Positions 12,636 through 18,703 of a DNA stretch of 20,000 nt are shown here, piece by piece (position 1 is the first letter of the stretch; every line of letters starts with the position of its first letter). Both the position numbers and the translations under genes were made by a program. The stretch is taken from sequence record SRR2962707_813; one strand, written 5' to 3'. Under the pieces are notes generated by a model that saw only the letters and a list, made by a program, of their open reading frames with translations, was not told the DNA's origin and made no database searches.

Positions 12636-12662
12636 TGTCTTTACGGTCTGTCTTAGGACAGA

Positions 12663-12752
12663 ATGAAAATAAAAAACCGACCCTTCAAGGGGTTCACAGG
12701 TGAAACTCACTCAACTTTTGAGTTTTATTTTTCCGATTGGATTACCAGGTAG
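12663..12752 (+). CDS. Putative 29-aa small protein downstream of the SAM riboswitch
   Basis: MKIKNRPFKGFTGETHSTFEFYFSDWITR*; an ATG-initiated ORF shortly after the riboswitch terminator. Confidence 0.4.
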   Translation: MKIKNRPFKGFTGETHSTFEFYFSDWITR

Positions 12753-12868
12753 TTTCCGTTTTTCCAGAAAGCTGCCGGATCTTTAATGGTTAGCTTGCCC
12801 ATATTGTCACCAGTTAGCATCCATTCATAGGATCCATCCGGGTACTGAGAGATCAATAGATATAGAGG
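12725..12868 (-). pseudogene. Possible 3' remnant of a truncated gene
   Basis: Open frame PLYLLISQYPDGSYEWMLTGDNMGKLTIKDPAAFWKNGNYLVIQSEK* begins right at the DoxX terminator with no proper start. Confidence 0.35.
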
Positions 12869-12870
12869 TT

Positions 12871-12906
12871 AAAAGAGGTTTTGCCGAACACTAAAACCTC
12901 TTTTTT
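12871..12906. terminator. Bidirectional intrinsic terminator
   Basis: AAAAGAGGTTTT-N10-AAAACCTCTTTT perfect stem with A and T tails, just downstream of the DoxX gene. Confidence 0.8.
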
Positions 12907-12912
12907 AAAACA

Positions 12913-13287
12913 TCAGGAAGAAGCGTACACTTTCTGATTATAGAAATAAGATAATGCTAACACCATACCTACTATCACTGGCATGATAATGTAGCTGATA
13001 TTTTTGTCTACCATGATGTGACTGTATGCGGCAAATATCAAATTAAATGATAAGCCAGCGTATGCCCACTCTCTCAATCTGTCTGGCAGCTTTGGAATCA
13101 TTAGTGCTGTTGCACCTGCTATTTTGCAAATGATCAAAGCGTAAGCAAAATAGTCAGGATAGCCTAATGGTTTTGTTCCGGCATTAAAATATTCATGTGC
13201 AAACAGGAGGGTGCTCAAGGGCAAAAGGGCTTCCATTAAGAAGATGATGGAGGTAGTTATCCAGAAGATGATTTTGTATTTTTTCAT
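12913..13287 (-). CDS. DoxX-like membrane protein
   Basis: IFWITT...LGYPDYF...KIAG...RLREWAYAGLSFNLIFAAYSH. Confidence 0.88.
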   Translation of the reverse strand: MKKYKIIFWITTSIIFLMEALLPLSTLLFAHEYFNAGTKPLGYPDYFAYALIICKIAGATALMIPKLPDRLREWAYAGLSFNLIFAAYSHIMVDKNISYIIMPVIVGMVLALSYFYNQKVYASS

Positions 13288-13299
13288 GGTTTTATCTTA

Positions 13300-13779
13300 T
13301 TATTTATTTGCCAGCAATTGCGCCAAGGCTTCCAATGTAGCTGTAAATCCTTCTTTGAAGCCCATTTTTATGTGCGCCTCCAGATCAGCCAGCGTTTTGT
13401 GTTTGATCCGAACCTGCACGGTGGTCTTTCCATTGGATTCTGTGAAATCTATATTCCAATTGGATCGTGGTACGTCTTGGTTGATATTTCCTTGATCGTC
13501 ACTAAAACCAGCCAATTGCTTGAAGTTTGTTTCCGGGGTGATTGAGGTGAATTCAATTACTCCCCAATGCTCTTCTCCGTTGGGTCCGACCATTGCGTAT
13601 AAGCGAGTTCCCCCTTCTATAAAATCCATGGATTTGGTCACTGATTTCCATGGATGAGGAGCCCACCACTGATCAAGGATGCTTGCCTCTGTCCATGCTG
13701 CCCAAACATCCGATTGTGATGCGTCGAACTCACGAGTTACATAAACTGTGCTGTTTTCTTTGTCGACTATAAATTCCAT
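13300..13779 (-). CDS. SRPBCC/AHSA1 domain protein
   Basis: VTREFDASQSDVWAAWTEASILDQWWAPHPW, MDFIEGGTRLYAMVGPNG, MGFKEGF. ATG 13779 preferred over the ORF-track start at 13851. Confidence 0.88.
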   Translation of the reverse strand: MEFIVDKENSTVYVTREFDASQSDVWAAWTEASILDQWWAPHPWKSVTKSMDFIEGGTRLYAMVGPNGEEHWGVIEFTSITPETNFKQLAGFSDDQGNINQDVPRSNWNIDFTESNGKTTVQVRIKHKTLADLEAHIKMGFKEGFTATLEALAQLLANK

Positions 13780-13822
13780 ATTCAATTTTGATTTTAGTTT
13801 CTGTTTTGTTCTGTTGAAAGGC

Positions 13823-14326
13823 CTATTTTTTGAAAGTTGACAAAAGTTCATCCAACCTCTCCAGGGTAGACATCAGTCCTTCTTTCATGCCCATTTTGAT
13901 CACTGCCTCCAGATCAGACAGGGACTTATAGGTTACAGTAGTTTCTACCAGTGTATTATTTCCCATATCGGAAAAATCAACATGCCACTCTGCTTTTGGA
14001 AGATCCGAATTCAGGTTTCCATCAGCGTCACTAAAGGCATCAAGTGTTTCATAAAAATCAATGGGTTGGATTTTGGTGTATTCTGTCCAGCCCCAATATT
14101 CCTGCCCTTCAGGGTCGATCATGGCATAGTGCCAGTGTCCGCCTTCGCTAAAATCCATGGATTTGGTCTTGGTGCTGAAAGGTCTGGGAGCAAACCACTG
14201 GTCCAGTAGCTCGCTTTTGGTGTAACAATCCCAAACCAATTGACGCCCTGCATTAAATTCTCTCCTTACGGTAATCGTGTTTTTTTCCTTGTCTACAAGG
14301 AAGTCAAACTGTAAATTCATTTTCAT
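13823..14326 (-). CDS. SRPBCC/AHSA1 domain protein
   Basis: [51 protein letters not shown] 14326 overlaps the arsR stop (ATGA). Confidence 0.9.
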
Positions 14327-14649
14327 TTTTTCTTGTTTTTCATTGTGGATAATAAGTTGTCGAGCTGATTGAAACGACTTTCCCAGATCTTTCGAAACTG
14401 CTCCAGCCAATGATCTATTTCTTTCATTTTCTCCACTTTTAGTTCATAGTAGATCTCTCTGCCTTGCTGGTTGGATTCAATGAGTTCACACTCACTCAAA
14501 ACCTGTATGTGCTTGGATATGGTAGGCCTGGCCACATCGAAATTGTTGGCTATTGCCCCGGCAGTCATGGTCTGTGATGCTAATAATACCAGTATCGCTC
14601 TGCGGGTAGGGTCCGCTATAGCCTGAAATGGATCTCTTCGTAGTTTCAT
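14323..14649 (-). CDS. ArsR/SmtB-family transcriptional regulator (second paralogue)
   Basis: [35 protein letters not shown]...GREIYY. Confidence 0.93.
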
Positions 14650-14676
14650 ATTAAGTCATTAAAATCGTTTATAATA

Positions 14677-14724
14677 TGTAGCTATATGGCTACAAATATA
14701 TTAATATGAAGTTAAATGGCTACA
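14677..14724. promoter_or_regulatory. ArsR operator pair (module 2) around a TAnnTTTG promoter
   Basis: TGTAGC-TATATG-GCTACA (14677-14694, palindromic arms) and TGAAGT-TAAATG-GCTACA (14707-14724). Minus-strand TATATTTG at 14693-14700. Confidence 0.75.
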
Positions 14725-14776
14725 TATTTTTGAATTTTTTTTCAAAATCAGGCTTTAAAATGTATTTGAGCAGCTT

Positions 14777-14842
14777 AACCCCCGGTTCGTGTCCTCACGA
14801 AACGAAAGATCTTCAGGATTTTGTGAAGACACAAACCATGGC
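14777..14842. repeat. REP/REPIN-like hairpin repeat, copy 1 (left of defence island)
   Basis: GGTTCGTGTCCTCACGAA...TTTGTGAAGACACAAACC imperfect inverted arms; direct copy at 18021-18085 (56 of 66 positions identical by manual alignment). Confidence 0.8.
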
Positions 14843-14901
14843 AGAGTATCTTTCTAAAGCTGCTTCCGGATGTTCTATTGCCAGAGAAGTAACGGCTTGC
14901 T

Positions 14902-14950
14902 TGTCATGCCGGACTTGATCCTGCCTTTGTCGGCAGATAGGCCTGCATCT
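14902..14950. repeat. Second REP-like element, possibly nested
   Basis: TGTCATGCCGGACTTGATCC...TGCATCT interrupted by the imperfect palindrome CCTGCCTTTGTCGGCAGATAGG. Confidence 0.4.
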
Positions 14951-15009
14951 TCCACAGTTATTTCTAATTATCCTTTGAAGGAGGGAAGAGGGTTGCTAAC
15001 TTTAGTTAA

Positions 15010-15165
15010 TTAGCAATTAAAATTAGAAGTAAGACATCTGCAGCAGTCACTTTATATGGTAAGGAGCTCCCAATAAGTGGGATAACGACTACATTAAGAA
15101 TTAGCAGGTCAACACTATATGAGTACCTAAGAAGAGAGGGTGTGTTTGACGTAAAGGCTAGTTAG
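15010..15165 (+). pseudogene. C-terminal HTH remnant of a serine recombinase (resolvase/invertase)
   Basis: Frame after TAA 15007-15009 reads LAIKIRSKTSAAVTLYGKELPISGITTTLRISRSTLYEYLRREGVFDVKAS*. ISRSTLYxYL is the Hin/resolvase HTH recognition helix; no start codon or catalytic domain. Confidence 0.7.
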
Positions 15166-15227
15166 GGTGTGGGTAACTTGTGGATATTTTTTTTTTGTTA
15201 ATTTTAATAAACCGTTATCACCGTTTT

Positions 15228-15428
15228 ATGGATGAATTTCTATCTTTTACAGGGTGGCTTATCGCACTAGGATCATTTATTGTAAACCTTATTCAACTGA
15301 ATAGAAACAAAAAGCTAGGTAAGAAGCTAAATGATTATAGAGCGATCACCAACTCCAATACTCTTAACCATTCAGGAGAAGGGGATAATATTAGCGTTGG
15401 AGGAGACGCAAAAATAAATAAGAATTAG
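15228..15428 (+). CDS. 66-aa single-TM protein with C-terminal amyloid-like motif; putative Lamassu-associated effector
   Basis: MDEFLSFTGWLIALGSFIVNLIQL (TM), basic linker, then N/G/S-rich tail NSNTLNHSGEGDNISVGGDAKINKN; ends 4 bp before the next gene. Confidence 0.75.
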   Translation: MDEFLSFTGWLIALGSFIVNLIQLNRNKKLGKKLNDYRAITNSNTLNHSGEGDNISVGGDAKINKN

Positions 15429-15432
15429 GATT

Positions 15433-15981
15433 GTGAATAAAATGGAGCATACTGGATTGGGTGATAATATTCATGCACAGGGTAACGTGTATATTAATGT
15501 AATTCAAAAATATCCAACGATACTGGCAGATCTAGTTAATGAGCTTAGTAGACAGCTGGGAGAAGAAGAAAACTCTATTGAGCTAAAGGATTTTCGGATA
15601 GAGGATAAAATTTCGTACAATAATGTCATAAGATATCGCGAGATAATTCAAGATCAGAAGATATACTATGGCAAATTGAATTTGATATATAATGAACTAG
15701 ATTCGCAAGGTTCATCTAAAAAGCAGCAAATTTTTAATTCAATAAGATCATCATACTTGAAGGCAAAAGGTCGCTTTATGAGTGAAAAACCGGAATTAGT
15801 TGAGATTGATATTATTCGTGAGAAATCAGATGATATTATAGAGAGTGTAGAGAATGAGATGATGAATATTATAGAGAAAAGCAACAACATTAATGCTGGC
15901 CTTGAGGCTATTAAATGGGGTATACAAATAATTCTTGTAGATGCCTTTATAAAGTGTAAGATTCTAGAAAATCCAAGCTAA
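15433..15981 (+). CDS. lmuA: Lamassu LmuA-like protein: ABC-3C C-terminal domain only, with a short N-terminal motif instead of an enzymatic effector
   Basis: 182 aa, helical, ends AFIKCKILENPS; sits directly before the middle component and ABC ATPase. No nuclease, protease, Sir2 or hydrolase domain is apparent. Start GTG 15433 or ATG 15442. Confidence 0.75.
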   Translation: MNKMEHTGLGDNIHAQGNVYINVIQKYPTILADLVNELSRQLGEEENSIELKDFRIEDKISYNNVIRYREIIQDQKIYYGKLNLIYNELDSQGSSKKQQIFNSIRSSYLKAKGRFMSEKPELVEIDIIREKSDDIIESVENEMMNIIEKSNNINAGLEAIKWGIQIILVDAFIKCKILENPS

Positions 15982-16214
15982 TGCTATTAAGTAAGAACCT
16001 CAGTCCTAATCACAGTCTTTATTACTCAGGTGCATTGATCATTCAAGTATTGAATGATAGCAATGAAAATGAGTTTGATTTTATAGACCTATATAATAAA
16101 TCAAACGCAAGGACTACAATCAGCATGAAGATGTTTGTATTGACGTTAGACTGGCTTTTCCTGATTGATGTGGTCAAACTAGGTGAGAATGGTTCCGTAA
16201 TAAAATGTATCTAA
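15981..16214 (+). CDS. lmuC: Lamassu LmuC / ABC-3C middle component (MC6-like)
   Basis: 77 aa, P-x-x-SLYYSGALII...FVLTLDWLFLIDVV; overlaps both neighbouring genes. Confidence 0.8.
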   Translation: MLLSKNLSPNHSLYYSGALIIQVLNDSNENEFDFIDLYNKSNARTTISMKMFVLTLDWLFLIDVVKLGENGSVIKCI

Positions 16215-17899
16215 AATCACTAGAAGTTAATTCGGATCAAGGGATAATAAGAAGTATCTCATTTAAAAAGGGGTTAAACCTTATTGTCGATGAAACTAAT
16301 TCCAATAGCGCTCAAACAACTGGTAATAATGTAGGTAAAACCACTGTTTTAAGGTTGATTGATTATTGCTTTGGTGGTAATGGTGAAAATATTTATAAAG
16401 ATTCTGAGTTTAAGGATAAATCCAATACTCAGGTTGAAAATTTCCTTATAGACAGAAGAGTTGAAGTTACTTTGACTTTAGTCGATAGTCTAAAGGATTT
16501 TGAATCTGATACAATTGTTATAAAGAGAAATTTTCTGAAAAGAAAAAGCAAAATTCAGCTAATCAATGGTGAATACTATAATGACAAGGATTTTGACTCA
16601 AAGCTCAAAAACCTGATTTTTAAAAGCTCAACTGATAAGCCAACTTTTAGACAAATCATCTCAAAGAATATTAGAGACGAGAAGAACAAGCTTCAAAATA
16701 CATTAAAAACCCTTCATTATAATACAACTAAAGAGGAATATGAGGCCCTTTATTTGTTTTGGCTAGGAATTGACCTTGATACCGCAAGTAGAAAAGTCAA
16801 ATTGAGTGAGCAAAGAAAAATGGAGATGAAAATATTCAATCGTTTGAAGAAAGGCGTTTCTGTCTCTGAGATTGAACAAGCTCTATTGATTTTAGAAAGG
16901 GACATCCAAGATTTAAATCGGCGTAAGGATAGGTTTAACTTAAATGAAAATTATGAATCTGATCTTCAGAAGTTAAATGAAACCAAGACTCATCTTAATT
17001 CGCTTTCTACTGAATTGGGAAGGCTAAAAACAAGGCAAGACTTAATCAATGAAAGTCTGAATGAATTAGAGAATGAAAAGTCAGACATTGATGTTAAGCA
17101 GTTAGAGGATATATATACAGCTGCCCAAAAATATATCCCTGATCTTCAAAAACAATTTTCTGATCTGCTTGAGTATCATAATAATATGCTTGACGAAAAG
17201 ATCGAGTTTATCGCGGCGGAAAAGCCAATAGTTGAATCTCAAATTCAGAAAGTATCAAGAGAGATACAGTTCTATATTAAGAGTGAACAGGAATTAAGTA
17301 TTAAACTGGAGAAGTCGGGAGCAATAGATGAGTTGCAATCGATTGTGTCAGATCTCAATTCAAAGCATGAGCAGAAAGGAAGTTACGAGGAGAAGCTAAA
17401 TCAGTGGAATAATTCAATAGATAAACTAGAAGAAATTGATGAGGAGCTAGAGAAAATCAATCAAGGGATAGATTCCCTAGATGAATTGATATCAAAGCGA
17501 ATAACGAGCTTTAATAGTTATTTTACCCAACTTTCTGAAATCCTATATGATGAACAATTCATCCTTAGTTATGATAAAACTGAAAGGGCATATGAATTAA
17601 AAATTAGCTCAGTTGGGGGAAATCTAGGAACAGGTAAGAAAAAAGTACAGATTGCAGCTTTTGATTTTGCATACATTCTGTTCTGTGAGGATAATGATGT
17701 CCCATGTTTTCATGCAATTCTTCATGATCAGAATGAGACAATTCACGATAATCAACTAAATCAATTAGCCGCTCTTTCTGAGAGTATAGATAGTCAATAC
17801 ATAGTTCCTGTTTTATATGACAAGCTTCCTCCAGGTATTGATATAGAGAAAAATAAAATTTTGAGTTTATCCCAGTCTGATAAGTTTTTCAAAATATAA
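16205..17899 (+). CDS. lmuB: Lamassu LmuB / ABC-3C SMC-Rad50-like ATPase (DUF2326-type)
   Basis: FKKGLNLIVDE, Walker A GNNVGKTT, long coiled coil, signature-like LGTGKKK, Walker B-like AILHD, C-terminal LSLSQSDKFFKI. Confidence 0.88.
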   Translation: MYLKSLEVNSDQGIIRSISFKKGLNLIVDETNSNSAQTTGNNVGKTTVLRLIDYCFGGNGENIYKDSEFKDKSNTQVENFLIDRRVEVTLTLVDSLKDFESDTIVIKRNFLKRKSKIQLINGEYYNDKDFDSKLKNLIFKSSTDKPTFRQIISKNIRDEKNKLQNTLKTLHYNTTKEEYEALYLFWLGIDLDTASRKVKLSEQRKMEMKIFNRLKKGVSVSEIEQALLILERDIQDLNRRKDRFNLNENYESDLQKLNETKTHLNSLSTELGRLKTRQDLINESLNELENEKSDIDVKQLEDIYTAAQKYIPDLQKQFSDLLEYHNNMLDEKIEFIAAEKPIVESQIQKVSREIQFYIKSEQELSIKLEKSGAIDELQSIVSDLNSKHEQKGSYEEKLNQWNNSIDKLEEIDEELEKINQGIDSLDELISKRITSFNSYFTQLSEILYDEQFILSYDKTERAYELKISSVGGNLGTGKKKVQIAAFDFAYILFCEDNDVPCFHAILHDQNETIHDNQLNQLAALSESIDSQYIVPVLYDKLPPGIDIEKNKILSLSQSDKFFKI

Positions 17900-18020
17900 T
17901 CCCCTAAGTTTAATTCTTTATAAGAGGAATAGTCAATTCAAATTTGGATACACTATAATTTAAACGGTGATCCACGACATTTCATTTTGTGCTCTACACA
18001 CCTCCATTTTCCATTTCTCC

Positions 18021-18085
18021 AACCCCCGGTTCGTGTCCCCCCGAATCGAAATTCTTCTGGGTTTTATGAAGACACAAACCTTAGC
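18021..18085. repeat. REP/REPIN-like hairpin repeat, copy 2 (right of defence island)
   Basis: AACCCCCGGTTCGTGTCCCCCCGAATCGAAATTCTTCTGGGTTTTATGAAGACACAAACC, same orientation as copy 1. Confidence 0.8.
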
Positions 18086-18198
18086 TAAAGATTTGACGCA
18101 AGGGCATTCAAAAGACTTACAACACCTTAATTCCTCCATTCTATATTTTCAATTCTCCTCAGCCTGGTCCTTCATTTGCAACGAGGATTCCTAATCCC

Positions 18199-18225
18199 AA
18201 AACACCTCCGATTACTCGGAGGTGT
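18199..18225 (-). terminator. Intrinsic terminator of the CMD gene
   Basis: ACACCTCCGA-TTAC-TCGGAGGTGT 10-bp stem with T tail on the minus strand. Confidence 0.75.
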
Positions 18226-18247
18226 GATCCATAGCATGATTGCTTAG

Positions 18248-18703
18248 TCAGCTTTGCTCTTCATACGAGCCCGGCACAAAGCCAAAAGTGATGGCTATAC
18301 GATTCCAGGAGTTAATCTGGCAGATGAGCAGGGTGAGATTTGCGATCTCATCCTTGGAAAAGACTTTAGCTGCGTGTGCATATGCTTCTTCCACATCACT
18401 GCCTGAGATGTTGGTCAGGGCCTCTGTCAGATGCAGCGCCGCACGCTCTTCTTCAGTGTAATGAGGTGATTCTCGCCACACCCGGGAGAGGTACAGACGC
18501 TGTGGGCTTTCTCCATCTTTTAGTGCTTCCTTTGTGTGCATATCTATGCAATAACCACAGCCATTGATCATCGATGCACGCAGCTTTACCAGGTGGTAGA
18601 TCTTCGAATCGATTCCTGCTTCCTTCAGGTATTTTTCAGTGTTCATCATGGCGGCATAAGCGCCTTTTGGTACTTCATGACTCGCTATTCGTTCCATTGT
18701 CAT
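18248..18703 (-). CDS. Carboxymuconolactone decarboxylase / AhpD-like protein
   Basis: LVKLRASMINGCGYCIDMH (CxxC...H), WRESPHYTEEERAALHLTEALT, INSWNRI. Confidence 0.92.
   Translation of the reverse strand: MTMERIASHEVPKGAYAAMMNTEKYLKEAGIDSKIYHLVKLRASMINGCGYCIDMHTKEALKDGESPQRLYLSRVWRESPHYTEEERAALHLTEALTNISGSDVEEAYAHAAKVFSKDEIANLTLLICQINSWNRIAITFGFVPGSYEEQS

Follow-up and report, generated by a model that had tools for sequence, protein, structure and literature searches.

The stretch of DNA analysed here, 20,000 nucleotides (nt) of sequence record SRR2962707_813 (hereafter, the window), carries an ABC-3C/Lamassu-type lmuA-lmuC-lmuB gene set, in which the LmuA-like protein consists of a short Gly/Asn-rich tag followed by a C-terminal domain (CTD), and which is preceded by a gene, here denoted T, for a membrane micro-protein of 66 amino acids (aa) that ends in a matching tag. 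T probably replaces, as a separate effector, the enzyme head that is usually fused to LmuA. We consider it reasonably likely that the locus represents a Lamassu variant of four genes: LmuA, once released and oligomerised, would use the Gly/Asn-rich tag that both proteins carry to recruit or template T, which would in turn damage the membrane. Lamassu is present in about 10% of prokaryotic genomes (10.1101/2022.05.11.491447) and has been portrayed as a sensor to which an enzymatic effector is fused; in the present locus, the effector slot appears to be filled by a separate micro-protein, which would be joined to the sensor by a short, co-evolving tag. The operon comprises the following features.

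15228..15428, + strand: T gene (proposed effector), 66-aa single-pass membrane protein (open reading frame (ORF) list, 12 aligned homologues, AlphaFold2)
15366..15419, + strand: C-terminal tag of T, residues 47-64, NHSGEGDNISVGGDAKIN (alignment to the LmuA tag, DNA repeat D5)
15433..15981, + strand: lmuA-like adaptor, 182 aa, tag followed by CTD10 (Pfam, AlphaFold2 model, VIA-align)
15445..15498, + strand: N-terminal tag of LmuA, residues 5-22, EHTGLGDNIHAQGNVYIN (conserved in 17 short forms)
15981..16214, + strand: lmuC-like middle component (MC6), 77 aa (Pfam)
16205..17899, + strand: lmuB-like SMC/Rad50-type ABC ATPase, 564 aa, no zinc hook (Pfam, PADLOC, PHROGs)

An earlier note on this DNA had described three overlapping genes of 182, 77 and 564 aa in the order lmuA-lmuC-lmuB, and these are indeed real: lmuA and lmuC overlap by 1 nt, lmuC and lmuB by 10 nt, and all frames are intact. 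The fourth gene, T, had been overlooked. In Pfam, the 182-aa protein matches CTD10 (PF20275; E = 2.8e-14, residues 31-179, 54.2 bits versus a cut-off of 28.1), the 77-aa protein MC6 (PF20293; E = 2.2e-19, profile positions 3-76 of 76) and the 564-aa protein DUF2326 (PF10088; E = 8.5e-15, residues 444-564), the latter two matches also being above the curated cut-offs; the ATPase additionally matches SMC_N (3.6e-4). The same protein was assigned to phrog_5467 in PHROGs (1.7e-38) and, in PADLOC, to the candidate family PDC-M68B (1.1e-41), with LmuB as the next best model (1.3e-10), and retrieved nothing at E <= 0.01 in a sequence comparison against the PDB. The LmuA and LmuC models of PADLOC 2.0 found nothing at E <= 1 for these operon proteins. 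Among the hallmarks of ABC-3C systems, a class reportedly defined by Krishnan et al. in 2020, the operon displays the DUF2326-type ATPase with a P-loop, the small middle component (MC) encoded between lmuA and lmuB, and the docking CTD of LmuA, but not the enzymatic effector domain fused at the N-terminus of LmuA, in which CTD10 was the single Pfam domain found. The start of lmuA was placed at GTG 15433, which reproduces the spacing ahead of the tag His in the homologues; ATG 15442 is an alternative start.

As also proposed previously, LmuB retains its nucleotide-binding motifs and lacks a zinc hook. The P-loop, GNNVGKT, is found at residue 40 and the sequence AILHDQ at 503-509; G40, N41, G44, K45, T47 and D508 are invariant across 11 aligned relatives, and the cysteines of the protein are limited to positions 55, 494 and 501, so that there is no CxxC hook. 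Residue 509, which follows the Walker B Asp, is Gln; this position is not conserved among the 11 relatives, in which E511 is invariant. A Glu-to-Gln change at the Walker B motif has been noted for LmuB generally in a review.

The earlier note had further held that LmuA leaves no room for a catalytic domain, and the structural model bears this out. The AlphaFold2 model of the 182-aa protein (predicted local distance difference test (pLDDT) 81.5, predicted template modelling score (pTM) 0.75) consists of seven helices between residues 30 and 173, with residues 1-20 being disordered (pLDDT <50). Because only ~30 non-helical residues precede CTD10, there is no space for an enzyme domain. When Foldseek candidates were compared with the model using VIA-align, the nine top rows were all C-terminal domains of Lamassu LmuA proteins (Z 7.3-10.9), headed by the model of Bacillus subtilis YydB (9a6c_B, Z 10.9) and including those from Vibrio cholerae (9uxl, 9uxh, 9uxi) and Salmonella (9hqx, 9hr5) as well as 9nxx, 9ny1 and 9ny5, with Z of 7.3-7.8. 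The alignments span 113-133 residues and superimpose residues ~33-182 of the model onto residues ~240-398, the C-terminal part, of the LmuA chains, whereas the first unrelated row has a Z of 3.9. Given this gap and the coverage of the whole domain, CTD10 likely shares its fold with the LmuA CTDs, even if Z values below 8 are not strong for helical proteins. Plain Foldseek on the LmuA model returned no row at E <= 0.001, and a search of the LmuA profile against PDB sequences yielded chance-level rows only.

The closest described counterparts are the type II Lamassu systems (V. cholerae DdmABC, equivalent to LmuACB; Salmonella enterica LmuACB; structures 9uxl, 9uxi, 9hqx, 9hr5 and 9nxx), which share with the present operon the overlapping lmuA-lmuC-lmuB order, the SMC/Rad50-like ATPase with a DUF2326 C-terminus, the small MC and, likely, the fold of the LmuA CTD. 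By contrast, the present LmuA carries no Cap4, Mrr or other head, the ATPase has no zinc hook, the LmuA and LmuC proteins escape the PADLOC models, and an extra membrane-protein gene lies upstream; furthermore, the pairing is CTD10/MC6 here and CTD7/MC3 in V. cholerae.

The T ORF, on the same strand, stops 4 nt ahead of the lmuA start. Its product is predicted to consist of a hydrophobic transmembrane (TM) helix (residues ~5-24), a basic stretch (residues 25-40) and the C-terminal Gly/Asn-rich tag. According to the positive-inside rule, the charge pattern of a membrane protein sets its orientation; in T, a charge of -2 over the first five residues versus a net charge of +5 over residues 25-40 would place the tag in the cytoplasm. 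The AlphaFold2 model is a single long helix of residues 2-44, confident up to residue ~30, with a coil tail. In an alignment of 12 homologues, Q23, G50 and G52 are invariant, and S16 and N20 nearly so; S16, N20 and Q23 would share one face of the helix (i, i+4, i+7). Searching 5.8 billion proteins at E <= 0.01 placed 34 clusters in the T family, none of which bears a name or a Pfam domain, and no family for T was found in Pfam, PADLOC, NCBIfam or PHROGs. Annotation pipelines thus overlook the key gene of the locus, and PADLOC 2.0 in turn misses this type of LmuA and LmuC.

The C-terminal tag of T mirrors the N-terminal tag of LmuA (alignment to LmuA residues 2-22, Smith-Waterman score 53), and a six-frame translation of the window contains the motif at these two sites only. 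Across 17 short LmuA forms, the tag follows the consensus H-x-G-x-G-x-N-(I/V)...G-(D/N)..I-N, G8 and G10 being invariant and N12 almost invariant. Compared with the CTD, the tags are rich in Gly (14.3% versus 2.7%), Asn (17.4% versus 8.1%) and Gln (6.8% versus 2.6%) and poor in Leu (2.1% versus 8.6%), Pro (0.7% versus 2.0%) and Lys (6.3% versus 10.0%), and both tags are conserved yet unstructured in the monomer models. Considering the conservation of G8, G10 and N12 and the co-variation with T described below, the ~22 N-terminal residues of LmuA appear to be a conserved coupling tag rather than a leftover.

The absence of an enzyme head could, in principle, reflect loss from an ordinary Lamassu gene, and the distribution of head types is informative in this respect. 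A homologue scan of 1.84 billion representatives retrieved 466 LmuA homologues at E <= 0.001, the 8 best of which are 182-189 aa long and align nearly end to end, with the nearest being only 46% identical. In the second large class, CTD10 is joined to an HNH head of ~100 aa, as exemplified by P0001, in which HNH_2 (E = 0.0012) precedes CTD10; the closest HNH-fused relative aligns over 88% of the query with 43% identity. Judging from their N-termini, the HNH head is present in 75 of the 80 genome loci, with the rest being four short forms and a 121-aa fragment (L073), and in most of the 80 metagenome loci, where the exceptions are 8 tagged short forms, L133, which is cut at the 5' end, and L130, a tagless protein of 168 aa. 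A third type of head, SMEK_N (E about 1e-36), was found on CTD10 in P0129 and P0147 (322-332 aa).

In a FastTree phylogeny of 150 rows (131 of 151 proteins, after 20 fragments shorter than 170 aa were dropped, to which the window and 18 loci were added), one clade of 57 rows with a support of 100 unites the HNH forms (44 full, 7 partial and 6 short ones resembling truncated calls), and the window and all 18 T-bearing loci fall outside of it. The lineage combining HNH-CTD10, MC6 and DUF2326 (P0001, L016-L095) is a sister that uses the same CTD10, MC6 and ATPase families but differs in its fused ~100-aa HNH head, its position in a separate clade (support 100) and the lack of T (0/109). Because the short forms fall outside the HNH clade, the missing head cannot be attributed to a local deletion; to judge by this, by the lengths of the best homologues and by the substitution rates given below, the short form is a conserved lineage, representing neither such a deletion nor decay. 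The window genes are too far from the nearest homologue (46%) for estimates of the ratio of non-synonymous to synonymous substitution rates (dN/dS), and the related pair L182/L184 was used instead, yielding 0.12 for T, 0.20 for LmuA, 0.20 for MC and 0.10 for the ATPase. These values, for one informative pair, indicate purifying selection on T, its tag included; one realigned row of the comparison, with 2 synonymous and 1 non-synonymous changes, contains too few changes to interpret.

These data bear on the possibility that the locus is what remains of a Lamassu system that has decayed or lacks an effector, or that it comprises three genes and has its effector encoded elsewhere in the genome. 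Such a possibility would be consistent with the lack of an enzyme domain in LmuA, and a recombinase helix-turn-helix (HTH) remnant as well as a drop in G+C content (see below) suggest a mobile, possibly eroded insert. Nevertheless, it appears very improbable, considering the four intact frames, the full-length profile coverage, the retention of the catalytic residues of the ATPase, the uniform length of the 8 best of the 466 homologues, their position outside the HNH clade and the fact that the tag motif occurs nowhere else in the window, to which that search was confined. The earlier note had regarded the intact frames as a sign of a functional rather than decayed system, had allowed that the 182-aa protein might match no ABC-3C CTD profile or might be the product of a deleted enzyme domain, and had envisaged an effector supplied in trans. 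The first of these suggestions agrees with the separate short-form lineage and with the dN/dS of 0.10-0.20, and the CTD10 match and the length and placement of the homologues are at odds with both caveats. The third suggestion, however, has to be revised: the effector is more likely T, whose gene belongs to the same operon, 4 nt upstream, and whose tag co-varies with that of LmuA.

T consistently accompanies the short form. It is present in all 13 short-form loci with enough upstream DNA, namely, that of the window plus 4 from genomes and 8 from metagenomes (window, L017, L018, L053, L066, L096, L097, L099, L102, L103, L104, L107 and L134), as a protein of 53-72 aa separated from the lmuA start by -14 to +6 nt. 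An automatic rule (ATG-initiated ORF of 40-120 aa ending at -30 to +20 nt, hydropathy >=1.4) recovered T in 12/12 short-form loci versus 0/109 HNH-form loci. The T/lmuA junctions include three ATGA overlaps and, in L096 and L097, in-frame stop-ATG arrangements, with other offsets in the rest. As the junction varies in this manner, the two genes should yield separate products rather than one frameshifted product; a programmed frameshift or read-through fusing T and LmuA was considered and ruled out, given that the frame relation differs among loci. T and LmuA are probably translationally coupled.

T might be a constitutive membrane anchor, with the tags tethering LmuA, LmuB and LmuC at the inner membrane, for instance, to watch DNA entry, and with killing or interference being exerted by something else, such as LmuB or a host factor. 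The facts of tag pairing, that is, the linkage of T and the co-variation, fit such an anchor too, and T has no recognizable toxin domain, its helix being confidently predicted and the remainder featureless. Yet every other LmuA class found has a head fused to CTD10 (mostly HNH, SMEK_N in two proteins), from which it follows that the slot filled by T is the effector slot, and T was never found together with an HNH head (0/109). Moreover, the LmuA proteins of solved Lamassu complexes must leave the complex to act, with which a fixed tether would be hard to reconcile. On balance, we regard the anchor as rather unlikely and a separate effector as the better explanation of T.

Co-variation of the tags was assessed by Smith-Waterman alignment of the C-terminal 30-35 residues of T to the N-terminal 30-40 of LmuA. 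The cognate mean was 61.3 versus a non-cognate mean of 37.3 across 12 loci (L099 was dropped as a near-copy of L096), and 63.1 versus 30.2 across 19 non-redundant loci (L099 and L184 were dropped; L178 and L183 never entered, as duplicates of L177 and L182); in either set, 0/100,000 permutations reached the observed sum. For 7 class-2 loci, the corresponding means were 66.1 and 36.0, with 1/5040 permutations, the identity itself, reaching the sum. The cognate LmuA was the best partner of T in 11/19 loci, and the cognate T the best partner of LmuA in 15/19. Independent divergence of the tags following one old duplication predicts equal likeness within and between loci; the excess observed therefore implies co-evolution, gene conversion or repeated duplication.

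The last two processes are relevant to the notion that the tag duplication is a neutral by-product of the splitting of an ancestral TM-tag-CTD10 gene, with the copies being kept alike by gene conversion, in which case the tags need not bind each other. The DNA coding for the tags is a direct repeat (D5) whose copies are spaced by 79 nt, a distance not divisible by three; such a repeat is the expected trace of a splitting duplication. However, no fused TM-CTD10 protein or other long T-containing protein was detected at E <= 0.01 among 8000 scored candidates, which is weak evidence, and the layout has been kept across lineages with ATPases only 29-55% identical to each other, with several unrelated tag types and with junction frames that vary among loci. 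The purifying selection on T, including the tag, and the invariance of G50 and G52 in T and of G8 and G10 in LmuA likewise speak against mere neutrality. Overall, a neutral gene split seems improbable, and functional pairing of the tags remains our preferred explanation of their likeness.

The layout is not confined to this type of tag. Distant short CTD10 proteins have other Gly/Asn-rich N-termini, for example, E-N-x-G-x-N-x-G-V...N-x-G-x-I-N, and a scan of viral contigs with the alignment of these proteins led to 10 loci. In 10/10 of these, the upstream gene encodes a protein that is 72-112 aa long, has one or two hydrophobic helices and mirrors, at its C-terminus, the N-terminus of the neighbouring CTD10 protein; in 9/10, genes for an MC (73-104 aa) and an ATPase (566-574 aa) follow, whereas L176 stops at lmuA. 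The two viral-contig MC proteins that were checked both belong to MC6. The recurrence of the layout with other tags points to a sub-class of systems with several tag families, which is also found on phage or prophage DNA.

Some of the viral-contig loci display peculiarities. The 81-aa upstream membrane protein of L182-L185 seems to have two hydrophobic helices instead of one, which suggests that the effector module differs between tag classes. In L180 (2760-3011 and 3001-3609), more than 20 consecutive asparagines precede the tag of the T-like protein. The tag of the L180 LmuA (residues 14-29, with a G-L-Q-I-G core) gave a sub-threshold match to Ses_B, a model of a motif from fungal death pathways (E = 0.0044, cut-off 23.2 bits), and the T tag of a relative gave E = 0.47; the match is to be taken as a hint only.

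How the four proteins might work together is suggested by the V. cholerae system, in which LmuA is sequestered as a monomer via its CTD and freed on DNA-end sensing, whereupon it tetramerises via the CTD with the N-terminal domains facing outward, a mechanism for which the authors propose generality in Lamassu (10.1101/2025.06.23.660979). Building on the observed genes and families, the conserved four-gene layout, the within-locus co-variation of the tags and the likeness of CTD10 to the LmuA CTDs, we infer tag binding, an order of events, membrane damage and a defence activity along the following lines. At rest, an LmuB dimer and LmuC would hold one LmuA through CTD10, and T would reside in the inner membrane with the N-terminus out and the C-terminus in, its tag being disordered in the cytoplasm. 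Sensing of foreign DNA (ends or replication intermediates) by LmuB would let go LmuA, which would oligomerise by its C-terminal domain and thereby gather several copies of the N-terminal Gly/Asn-rich tag. The gathered tags would then pair with, and perhaps template in an amyloid-like fashion, the matching C-terminal tag of T, and the clustered T helices, with their polar stripe of S16, N20 and Q23, could perturb or permeabilise the membrane, so that the infected cell would be stopped (abortive infection).

Several points weigh against this scheme. T belongs to no known membrane-toxin family, the Pfam matches to holin (E = 0.26) and, for a relative, Hol_Tox (E = 0.11) both being insignificant; a lone TM helix would be a minimal effector, and T could be a membrane anchor instead. 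No test of a defence activity of CTD10-type systems was found in the accessible literature. Gene conversion between the two short DNA repeats could also maintain the likeness of the tags, and the window pair itself is not extreme in the 12-locus set: at a score of 53, the window's LmuA is no better than third among the LmuA partners of its T, and the T comes first among the T partners of that LmuA. Furthermore, the tags of the window match no known amyloid-motif profile in Pfam (profiles of the amyloid signalling sequences of bacteria (BASS) lie outside the libraries searched), and consensus scans for promoters and terminators performed no better than on shuffled sequences. Prediction of the LmuA-T complex, in which alignments were not used, gave 0.00 against a mark of 0.34 and weighs neither way.

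The placement of the tags parallels that of amyloid signalling motifs. Bacterial motifs of this kind are ~25 aa long, contain more Q, N, G, V and I and less K, P and L than usual, and are located at the effector C-terminus and the receptor N-terminus; 91% of the pairs are collinear and, of the collinear pairs, 57% have ORFs <=10 bp apart and 42% overlap, with 'all-in-one' effector-receptor fusions existing as an alternative (Dyrka et al., 10.1101/2020.01.06.895854). Like the Bell/NLR BASS pairs of filamentous bacteria and the fungal HET-S/NWD2 pair, the T-LmuA pairs have the same motif at the effector C-terminus and the sensor N-terminus, likest within the pair, collinear genes that nearly abut or overlap, and G/N/Q-rich, P/L/K-poor motifs, and the HNH-CTD10 and SMEK-CTD10 proteins would take the part of the 'all-in-one' fusions. 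By contrast, the receptor of BASS pairs is a STAND NTPase and their effector has a Bell or HeLo domain, whereas the sensor side here is an ABC-3C adaptor, neither STAND/NLR nor Agp-type, and T has neither of these effector domains. The hosts also differ, being multicellular Actinobacteria and Cyanobacteria in the case of BASS, and unicellular Bacteroidota-like bacteria, other bacteria and viral contigs here.

A similar parallel exists with Bab/Agp (BASS11) of Escherichia coli, which are encoded by adjacent genes, carry their motifs at residues 86-108 of Bab and 2-25 of Agp and provide abortive defence against T5, with the Bab effector moving to the cell periphery (10.1101/2024.11.07.622273). 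In both cases, a small effector with a C-terminal motif of ~23 aa stands beside a motif-bearing sensor, and in Bab/Agp this arrangement is associated with action at the membrane and phage defence. Bab, however, has a globular Bell-like domain, whereas T has a single TM helix, and Agp is a large single protein, whereas the sensor here is a three-protein complex of the SMC type. The motifs of the two systems are unrelated in sequence, and amyloid behaviour has been shown for Bab/Agp but is conjectural for the present tags. A prion-like mechanism, whereby CTD-driven oligomerisation of LmuA would nucleate a cross-beta fold in the tag and convert the tag of T, is a tentative extension of the scheme that we find less likely than not. 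If correct, it would apply to a whole Lamassu sub-class with several independent tag families, in unicellular bacteria and phage contigs, and amyloid signalling would reach beyond NLR-like receptors and multicellular bacteria.

We found no description in which Lamassu or ABC-3C is linked to amyloid-type motifs or to a membrane effector that is split off, although the founding ABC-3C paper, which was outside the search, may mention head-less forms. If the four-gene scheme holds, it would provide a swappable wiring rule for defence systems, with the tag serving as an address, and would add a membrane-acting output to Lamassu. It would also offer a small bacterial model, with an effector of 66 aa and tags of 18-22 aa, for the proximity-induced or amyloid-type signalling of fungal and animal cell death.

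The window derives from a chromosome and shares synteny with the nearest genome, G001 (81-96% identity on either side), but positions 12640-18180 have no counterpart at the syntenic G001 site. That site instead harbours a gene of at least 435 aa (L001 2-1309, G001:C1:904565-905872) with an AGS_C domain (E = 2.6e-11) and a cyclase-like motif. AGS_C is the adenylyl/guanylyl and SMODS C-terminal sensor domain, and its presence there makes the site look like a variable, defence-prone hotspot. The G+C content of the operon, 32-33%, compares with 40-46% in the flanks, and the low-GC operon is bordered and preceded by the following features.

14777..14842, + strand: left copy of a ~65-nt dispersed repeat (families D1 and D2; 85-90% identical to the right copy)
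18021..18085, + strand: right copy of the dispersed repeat (holds a terminator-like stem-loop, 18027-18048)
15010..15162, + strand: 51-codon remnant that looks like a serine resolvase/invertase C-terminal HTH, ending ...ISRSTLYEYLRREGVFDVKAS (HTH_7, E = 0.002, below the cut-off)

The ~65-nt repeat, which matches 5 places in G001, is probably a dispersed element of the repetitive extragenic palindromic (REP)-like kind; a role of the two flanking direct copies as att sites was considered and is not proven, the copies being those of a dispersed repeat. The HTH remnant, located just upstream of T, may have been left by the element that brought the operon. A tRNA scan found none, and an Rfam search of 14400-18400 returned only a spurious mir-1277 match on an AT-rich palindrome (27.9 bits versus a cut-off of 81), at the 14672-14731 repeat described below. 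Further upstream, 12913-14649 on the - strand encodes DoxX_2, two AHSA1/SRPBCC paralogues and an ArsR-type regulator, none of which is present at the syntenic G001 site. Directly upstream of the ArsR gene, 14672-14731 contains a tandem and inverted 30-nt repeat that could serve as its operator.

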